Origin: Escherichia coli
Lineage (GTDB): Bacteria; Pseudomonadota; Gammaproteobacteria; Enterobacterales; Enterobacteriaceae
Direction: 5' to 3' (one strand)
DNA: 64,000 nucleotides
Assembly (NCBI RefSeq): GCF_009931435.1
Contig: NZ_CP043414.1
Position 1 is the first letter of the stretch. Each line of letters opens with the position of its first letter. Of the stretch, positions 42,638-42,983 are shown piece by piece. The notes below the pieces were generated by a model that made no database searches, was not told the origin of the DNA, and worked only from the letters and a program-made list of their open reading frames with translations. Made by a program: the position numbers and the translations under genes.

Positions 42638-42983
42638 TTGCCTGATGCGACGAGGTCTGTGCAGGAGTAGAACCGTAGGTCGGATAAGGCGTTCACGCCG
42701 CATCCGACAGCCGTTGCCTGATGCGACGCCGGCGCGTCTTATCAGGCCTGTGCAGGAGTAGAACCGTAGGTCGGATAAGGCGTTCACGCCGCATCCGACA
42801 GTCGTTGCCTGATGCGACGCTGGCGCGTCTTATCAGGCCTGTGCAGGAGTAGAACCGTAGGTCGGATAAGGCGTTCACGCCGCATCCGACAGTCGTTGCC
42901 TGATGCGACGCTGGCGCGTCTTATCAGGCCTACACAGGGGGAGAACCGTAGGTCGGATAAGGCGTTCACGCCGCATCCGACAC
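42638..42983. repeat. Tandem REP/BIME array, about four units
   Basis: Repeated GCCTGATGCGACGC...GCGTCTTATCAGGCCT...GTAGGTCGGATAAGGCGTTCACGCCGCATCCGACA units between dedD and cvpA. Confidence 0.9.

Follow-up and report, generated by a model that had tools for sequence, protein, structure and literature searches.

What is the repeated DNA between dedD and cvpA in Escherichia coli, how does it change between strains, and what could it do for the genes on either side of it? We asked this of a 64,000-nucleotide stretch of E. coli DNA (contig NZ_CP043414.1, hereafter the window), in which an earlier note had described, at 42638-42983, a second tandem array of about four units built from repetitive extragenic palindromes (REPs) and belonging to the bacterial interspersed mosaic elements (BIMEs). 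The feature is an ordinary BIME-2 array of E. coli REPs, a known repeat class at a catalogued locus, present here in a rare allelic form. Taken as a whole, the following explanation is one in which we have high confidence: a BIME-2 array in the dedD 3' untranslated region (3'UTR) with a fast turnover of its units, whose hairpins would attenuate transcription and protect the 3' end of the upstream mRNA, and whose Y palindromes would offer gyrase sites.

Tandem Repeats Finder reports a single tandem array at 42653-42997 with a period of 91, 3.8 copies, 95% matches, no indels and a score of 606. A repeat search recovers a 163-nt stretch three times at a spacing of 91 and with 93-100% identity, which is the 91-bp unit seen over nearly two periods, and it finds TTGCCTGATGCGACG four times, starting at 42638, 42714, 42805 and 42896. 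Y and Z2 positions were assigned by regular-expression (regex) annotation of the window. The 3.8 copies lie within 42638-42997, and each unit joins a + strand Z2 palindrome to a Y palindrome in inverse orientation. The coordinates and the unit number given in the earlier note are accurate. In total the array holds four Y, three intact Z2 and one Z2 (Z2') that is crippled by a 15-bp internal deletion, in the + strand order Z2'(+), Y(-), Z2(+), Y(-), Z2(+), Y(-), Z2(+), Y(-). A degenerate REP pattern matches the three intact Z2 in the window, versus none in 100 dinucleotide-preserving shuffles of it. From 5' to 3' the elements are:

From 42631, + strand: flank TACGGTTTT, directly 3' of the dedD stop codon
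42640-42657, + strand: truncated Z2, with the 5' arm GCCTGATGCGACG kept and 15 bp, CTGGCGCGTCTTATC, deleted relative to the K-12 and O157 alleles
42679-42708, - strand: Y unit 1 (regex, 0 mismatches), with GTAG before it on the + strand at 42675-42678
42716-42747, + strand: Z2 unit 1, followed by CTGT instead of CTAC
42770-42799, - strand: Y unit 2 (regex)
42807-42838, + strand: Z2 unit 2, followed by CTGT
42861-42890, - strand: Y unit 3 (regex)
42898-42929, + strand: Z2 unit 3, followed by the canonical CTAC
42952-42981, - strand: Y unit 4 (regex), the last unit of the array
42987-42997, + strand: native flank TTGCCCGATGC, which resembles the Z2 head TTGCCTGATGC

The linkers are 22 nt tail to tail (CTGTGCAGGAGTAGAACCGTAG) and 7 nt head to head (AGYCGTT). 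At the foot of the palindromes, GTAG precedes all four Y, while CTAC follows just one of the three intact Z2 and CTGT the other two as well as the truncated copy; the K-12 and O157 alleles of the locus have CTAC at the Z2 foot. Units 2 and 3 (within 42744-42925) match at 91 of their 91 positions, a sign of very recent duplication; unit 1 departs from both at three positions.

By definition, a BIME-2 is built of z2 and y units, is repeated several times in tandem, has short linkers and differs in copy number between strains (Ton-Hoang 2012, PMC3333891). All of this is found here: Z2 and Y alternate in inverse orientation, the copies are in tandem, the linkers are short and the copy number differs between strains. 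The units are also extragenic, lying between the dedD stop and the cvpA start, and dispersed in the genome as REPs are; for the array repeat, the median number of matching places in an E. coli genome is 19, an underestimate, and two further REP loci lie elsewhere in the window. BIME-1 elements (also RIP/RIB) resemble the array in being inverted REP pairs in intergenic DNA, and they are described as single copies of Z1 and Y with a long L linker that carries an IHF site (PMC3333891). We rejected this assignment, as the array has no Z1 and no long L linker, its units are in tandem, and the IHF consensus WATCAANNNNTTR has no match in 42630-43016. The closest relative is the cvpA-dedD BIME-2 of K-12, which shares the locus, the Z2/Y units, their orientation, the linkers and the position after the dedD stop. 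It differs in having one unit where the window has four, in lacking the 15-bp deletion in the first Z2, and in having CTAC where the window has CTGT, namely after two of the three intact Z2 and the truncated one. The K-12 RefSeq record shows no repeat features anywhere, the yaaX-yaaA spacer included, and is thus uninformative on this array.

The placement of the array between dedD and the cvpA-purF operon is borne out by DNA identity to RefSeq-annotated loci. The features that surround it are:

41968-42630, + strand: dedD coding sequence, with a GTG start and a TAG stop at 42628-42630 (list of open reading frames (ORFs) and the 99%-identical RefSeq locus L001)
43017-43052, + strand: intrinsic terminator, a 12-bp hairpin (43017-43046) followed by the T-run TTTTTATT (terminator scan)
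43075-43090, + strand: PurR-box-like operator ACGCAAACGTTTTCTT, read from the sequence and invariant in all non-Escherichia loci inspected
43098-43103, + strand: TAGAAT, a -10-like hexamer downstream of the PurR-box-like operator
43147-43635, + strand: cvpA coding sequence, first gene of the cvpA-purF-ubiX operon (ORF list and RefSeq loci)

The array therefore sits within the dedD 3'UTR, 5' of the terminator and apart from the cvpA control region. The terminator hairpin begins 35 bases past the last Y and has a predicted fold of -18.0 kcal/mol (z -4.9). It was the sole site called in a terminator scan of 41900-43700, with none inside the array, so that the REP hairpins themselves do not qualify as intrinsic terminators, for which a G+C-rich hairpin with a T-run directly after it is needed. 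The folC-dedD transcript probably ends at this site. From knowledge of the pur regulon we take ACGCAAACGTTTTCTT to be the PurR operator and TAGAAT the -10 element of the cvpA-purF-ubiX promoter. A simple sigma-70 promoter scan called no site at the cvpA control region, so that we assign the promoter from the conserved PurR box, TAGAAT and prior knowledge. The neighbouring genes folC, dedD, cvpA, purF and ubiX are all on the + strand in the RefSeq annotation of 98-99%-identical loci. In a REPtron, a Y1-transposase gene (tnpA(REP)/RAYT) would stand directly between REP or BIME copies; the genes next to this array are dedD and cvpA. The + strand of the window has a positive GC skew, from which it follows that the folC-dedD and cvpA-purF genes are co-oriented with replication. 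Moreover, in vitro genomic SELEX (systematic evolution of ligands by exponential enrichment) placed an RpoN-holoenzyme peak of 31-32% intensity in the K-12 cvpA-dedD spacer (PMC8743547); no obvious sigma-54 -24/-12 motif was seen on reading the dedD-cvpA spacer by eye.

Could the repeats themselves be coding? ORFs of 61-74 codons cross them on both strands (42812-43027 on the + strand; 42784-43008, 42578-42787 and 42693-42878 on the - strand), and this is what a reading in which the array encodes small proteins would start from. None of these ORFs has a Pfam match, the RefSeq annotation of the identical allele leaves the dedD-cvpA interval without a gene, a period of 91 bp does not divide by three, and the alleles of zero to seven units described below would break or reshape the frames. 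We rejected their coding potential on the missing Pfam match and RefSeq gene and on a length polymorphism incompatible with a gene; the probability that the repeats encode small proteins is next to nil.

The array also matches an RNA family. On the + strand, its three Y-Z2 pairs reach 78.9, 80.8 and 80.8 bits against the Rfam model naRNA4 (RF02564), whose gathering score is 59.5, and the - strand stays below this score at 55-56 bits. These matches could mean that small nucleoid-associated RNAs of the naRNA4 kind are encoded in the array, bind HU and aid chromosome condensation, a role that was proposed for REP325-derived RNAs (Qian 2015). However, the Rfam model describes any Y-Z2 pair, and the array between mnmC and yfcL in the same window scores equally well (81-82 bits), so that a match marks the repeat type and not a specific gene. 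Furthermore, a 2026 study found neither an HU-naRNA4-cruciform complex nor REP-REP contacts in Hi-C, and the nucleoid was unchanged when REP325 was deleted or overexpressed (bioRxiv 10.64898/2026.03.23.713779). We consider a naRNA4-like function of the array very unlikely. For annotation this calls for caution: an Rfam naRNA4 match at this locus means a Y-Z2 REP pair, not a dedicated small-RNA gene.

The mnmC-yfcL array is the first array of the window, at 29516-29966, and consists of four intact Z2(+)/Y(-) units of 94 bp and a degenerate tail. The earlier note had assigned both arrays to the same REP family in slightly different arrangements, and this holds: the two share the Rfam family, the Z2(+)/Y(-) units, a similar Rfam score and a strain-variable length, whereas the period is 94 in the first and 91 in the second, and the tail-to-tail linker is shorter and the head-to-head linker longer in the first than in the dedD-cvpA array. 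The first array lies between the convergent genes yfcL and mnmC, the second between tandem genes. In the closest E. coli strains the span of the mnmC-yfcL array is 94 bp less, and the K-12 spacer there is just 120 bp.

How stable is the dedD-cvpA array within the species? The strain comparison of array length that the earlier note had proposed shows that the locus is polymorphic, with 0, 1, 2, 3, 4 or 7 units. We dissected twelve alleles, those of the window and of 11 fetched loci, and the regular alleles line up as follows:

0 units: spacer of 167 bp (L007)
1 unit: spacer of 258 bp (K-12 type, L002)
2 units: spacer of 349 bp (L009)
3 units: spacer of 440 bp (L004)
4 units: spacer of 531 bp (O157:H7, L003)
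7 units: spacer of 804 bp (L010)

In addition, three loci (L005, L006 and L008) carry decayed variants of the array. Approximate proportions of the alleles come from a 60-row sample spaced evenly down the ranking, of which 59 rows were chromosomal. About two thirds of these (39/59) have one unit, 6/59 have three and another 6/59 have four; the remaining 8/59 comprise the alleles of 0, 2 and 7 units, the window-type allele, decayed variants and one partially aligned O157 locus. The empty allele accounts for about one of the 59 sampled E. coli.

The junction left by the truncated Z2 is rare, being found in 14 of 5,426 complete E. coli genomes. Within this lineage the spacer is 243 bp (one unit, L011), 334 bp (two units, at least five genomes) or 516 bp (four units, the window and L001). 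As 1, 2 and 4 units thus occur inside a lineage of 14 genomes, copy number changes within very brief spans of evolution. In the flanking genes folC-dedD (40710-42630) and cvpA-purF (43147-45189), the identity of the window to K-12-type strains is about 96%, and to Escherichia sp. MOD1-EC7003 about 95%. Only a few RefSeq genomes reach 97-99% identity to the window, for example 2020CK-00188, 2017-02-2CC and the rare strains with the truncated Z2. Judged by these identities, the window represents a divergent E. coli lineage.

The locus gains and loses units in exact steps of 91 bp, and neighbouring units can be identical. Such a pattern fits unequal recombination or replication slippage, and in the explanation that we favour copy number would shift through unequal exchange or slippage between units, possibly aided by the REP-associated transposase TnpA(REP). 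This enzyme cleaves TGCC|TGAT at the Z2 head and can recombine BIMEs in vitro (PMC3333891), and it may contribute to the changes in copy number seen here. The native flank TTGCCCGATGC (42987-42997) shares 10 of 11 bases with the Z2 head TTGCCTGATGC. We considered whether it is a degenerate Z2 remnant and rejected this, since a homologous GCCC..AGAGGC precedes the terminator in genera without this BIME. As a sequence match, it is the probable microhomology for the loss of units in the empty allele L007. We also rejected the idea that this empty allele is ancestral, as E. albertii, E. whittamii and three other Escherichia lineages carry one or two units with the linker AGCCGTT. A secondary deletion between TTGCCTGATGC and TTGCCCGATGC explains the empty allele best.

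The question of when the array arrived, and of what the locus looks like without it, was addressed with 120 loci (L012-L131) that were retrieved from one-genome-per-species assemblies by a degenerate pattern for the region of the cvpA start codon. In 97 loci of Enterobacteriaceae species the block from the terminator to the cvpA ATG measures 126-131 bp and contains the terminator hairpin, the PurR box, TAGAAT and the cvpA leader (43017-43146 in the window), and its key elements are nearly invariant. The gap between the dedD stop and the terminator in the same loci ranges from 26 to 493 bp. All five recovered representatives of Escherichia-lineage species of the Genome Taxonomy Database (GTDB) carry one or two Z2/Y units at the locus with the common linker AGCCGTT. 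They are E. albertii, E. whittamii, the E. coli-titled E69 and SCPM-O-B-8794, and Escherichia sp. MOD1-EC7003; the flanking genes of E69 and SCPM-O-B-8794 are about 90-95% identical to the window. The shared units and linker indicate that the BIME predates the radiation of the genus Escherichia.

Outside Escherichia the gap is occupied differently. Citrobacter koseri, C. amalonaticus and C. sedlakii have Citrobacter-type REPs in it. In Enterobacter, Lelliottia, Pluralibacter, Phytobacter and Pseudocitrobacter it holds unrelated palindromes of the form CCCTCTCCC...GGGAGAGGG (L025, L042, L065, L100, L125, L016 and L028), which in Pseudocitrobacter faecalis (L025) form a long tandem array in a gap of 493 bp. 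We call these palindromes BoxC-like, a provisional label that likens them to the E. coli BoxC consensus. They resemble the dedD-cvpA BIME-2 in occupying the same gap between dedD and the terminator, in being palindromic and in often being tandem, but they belong to an unrelated sequence family without Y or Z2 motifs. Trabulsiella and Yokenella have no insert in the gap, and in several genera only 26-40 bp separate dedD from the terminator. At least three unrelated palindrome families, the Z2/Y BIME-2, the Citrobacter REP and the BoxC-like palindromes, thus fill the same gap in different genera. One could suppose that selection or structure favours this gap as a landing pad for palindromic repeats. 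We think this rather improbable, and the site may simply be permissive. If the pattern were convergent, it would suggest that a structured spacer able to expand is generally advantageous just 5' of the terminator, where it could insulate the purF operon or buffer supercoiling. At the locus in the window, the array would act on a 3'UTR with a separate terminator, and the genera that lack the array do not need it for termination.

We then come to the palindromes as potential RNA structures. The seven intact palindromes, of 30 nt (Y) and 32 nt (Z2), fall within the 30-40 nt expected of a REP and can each form a stem-loop. As RNA, the Y hairpin folds at -18.8 kcal/mol and the Z2 hairpin at -21.1 kcal/mol (z of about -4), and none of 200 shuffles is equally stable. 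Taken as a whole, the 441-nt array region forms a much more stable fold than its shuffles, whether read from the + strand (z = -7.8) or the - strand (z = -9.7). The truncated Z2 alone reaches -3 kcal/mol with a z of +0.49, and for it the canonical hairpin is impossible.

The stems of 16 unique Z2 and 13 unique Y from 17 alleles of the dedD-cvpA locus were compared. In every copy the bases at stem positions 8 and 9 do not pair, as the definition of a REP requires, and a conserved pair of non-complementary bases in the REP stem has been described before (PMC3333891). In Z2 the mismatches are predominantly G.T and C.T, and two of the 16 copies have T.T at position 9 as a minor variant; in Y they are predominantly A.C and A.G, and one of the 13 copies has T.C at position 8. 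Three double substitutions preserve pairing, at the Z2 pairs 12-21 and 13-20. The palindrome is maintained, and the sample is too small to separate constraint on the + strand RNA, on the - strand RNA or on the DNA.

The first hairpin of the 3'UTR stands so close to the stop codon that it raises a question of its own. According to the model of Liang, Rudd and Deutscher from 2015, a hairpin at most 15 nt from the stop reportedly causes ribosomes to stall at termination and to be rescued by transfer-messenger RNA (tmRNA). A stable stop-proximal hairpin could then lower DedD translation through termination stalling and tmRNA rescue, and in K-12-type alleles the Z2 stem does start 9 nt after the dedD stop. 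In the window allele this first canonical REP is destroyed by the 15-bp deletion. We considered whether the deletion frees dedD of its stop-proximal hairpin, an idea weakened by the finding that complementarity between flank and linker predicts a replacement: TACGGT in the flank (42631-42636) can pair with ACCGTA (42672-42677), a linker motif that recurs at 42763, 42854 and 42945. With this outer stem the window allele has a predicted hairpin of -18.4 kcal/mol that starts 1 nt after the stop, and in the K-12 allele the same stem encloses the first Z2 hairpin in a predicted fold of -36.8 kcal/mol. Yet the substitute hairpin of the window is only marginally better than shuffles (z -2.6) and makes up 11% of the ensemble, and we regard an effect on DedD translation as improbable. 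The TACGGT/ACCGTA complementarity, which involves only 6 nt, could be due to chance or be part of the history of the inserted unit.

What, then, would the array do for the transcript that contains it? We propose that the folC-dedD transcript would run through seven stable hairpins ahead of the intrinsic terminator. The hairpins would slow 3'-to-5' exonucleases, protecting the 3' end of the dedD mRNA, and there would be partial Rho-dependent attenuation before the terminator is reached. In this way the level of dedD mRNA would be tuned and read-through into the PurR-regulated cvpA-purF genes would be further limited. The best-studied comparison is REP325 in the yjdM-yjdN spacer, which acts as a partly Rho-dependent attenuator with an effect of about 8-10-fold on the downstream gene, stabilises the upstream mRNA and yields a ladder of truncated transcripts (bioRxiv 10.64898/2026.03.23.713779). 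REP325 has the same unit types in the same tandem Y-Z2 organisation and also lies in a 3'UTR between two co-oriented genes. It differs from the dedD-cvpA array in having 12 alternating Z2/Y units as opposed to seven intact palindromes, and in being the main attenuator inside the yjdMN operon, whereas the dedD-cvpA array is followed by its own conserved terminator and an independently regulated promoter. By this analogy, attenuation and protection of the dedD mRNA 3' end by the array are likely, and the proposal in the earlier note that the array may influence termination, or the stability of dedD versus cvpA-purF transcripts, agrees with the published behaviour of REP325. The net effect is probably modest and not essential, given that the terminator exists without repeats in other genera and that E. 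coli tolerates zero to seven units.

Some observations weigh against this explanation. REP effects strongly depend on context, and terminal REPs were found to be without a general effect on half-life (bioRxiv 10.64898/2026.03.23.713779). No particular copy number can be required, as E. coli is viable with 0-7 units and as the gap before the terminator in other genera, in loci without an insert, shrinks to as little as 26 bp. Single-sided stem changes comprise nine G.T and nine A.C, which in a sample as small as these 29 unique units gives no signature of selection on the + strand RNA specifically. Finally, CTGT in place of CTAC might impair recognition by TnpA(REP), which bears on the part of the explanation that concerns unit turnover.

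The first two of these points, together with the presence of 1, 2 and 4 units within one small lineage and the gaps of 26-40 bp in several genera, would equally suit an array that is neutral or selfish. It would change in length by palindrome recombination or through the REP transposase and have no meaningful effect on dedD or cvpA-purF, regulation being left to the downstream terminator and the PurR promoter. However, all five Escherichia-lineage GTDB representatives have kept at least one unit, and the empty allele is rare among the sampled E. coli. Moreover, in the light of the REP325 data, hairpins of such stability in a transcribed 3'UTR are unlikely to be fully inert, and gyrase cleavage has been recorded at the K-12 allele. 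A neutral or selfish array is a credible possibility, albeit one that we doubt.

The gyrase data point to a further alternative, in which the array would primarily act at the level of DNA, as a strong, transcription-independent gyrase site or as a topological insulator between folC-dedD and cvpA-purF, and in which more Y units would mean more gyrase binding. BIME-2 elements are enriched in gyrase cleavage sites, Y is cut by gyrase more often than Z2, and the signals at BIME-2 rise when transcription is blocked (Sutormin 2019, PMC6379681). In the supplement of that study, the K-12 element '<cvpA-<dedD' is listed under BIMEs2 with a length of 83 bp, and this single-unit element has two cleavage sites in the set labelled RifCfx and one with microcin. 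The same entries also speak against a primary role in DNA topology, since the K-12 locus has zero sites with ciprofloxacin (Cfx) or oxolinic acid (Oxo) alone, and since most BIME-2 intervals in the portion of the table examined are without cleavage sites. In addition, the data describe the K-12 allele and not the four-unit allele, and a DNA-level action is compatible with effects at the level of RNA. That the array works primarily through DNA is possible but unlikely. In the explanation centred on the transcript, the Y units would be preferred sites of gyrase cleavage as well, as published for the K-12 allele and as we infer for that of the window.

On its own, the array matters little, as REP/BIME-2 elements are among the best-known bacterial repeats and the locus is catalogued in K-12. 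Its alleles, however, form a natural series of 0, 1, 2, 3, 4 and 7 units before a fixed terminator and promoter, which is well suited to the study of how REP copy number relates to mRNA 3'-end protection, Rho-dependent attenuation and gyrase recruitment. Strain typing, too, could draw on array length and on the rare truncated-Z2 allele, both of them fast-evolving markers. The most interesting by-product of the analysis is that one 3'UTR gap has been colonised repeatedly by unrelated palindromic families across genera.

Elsewhere in the window, a solitary REP, GTCGGATGCGACGCTGACGCGTCTTATCCGAC, is found at 33294-33325 on the - strand and combines a Y-like outer stem with a Z2-like inner stem. 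A tRNA gene at 6972-7043 on the - strand (Rfam, 63.4 bits) is unrelated to the array.

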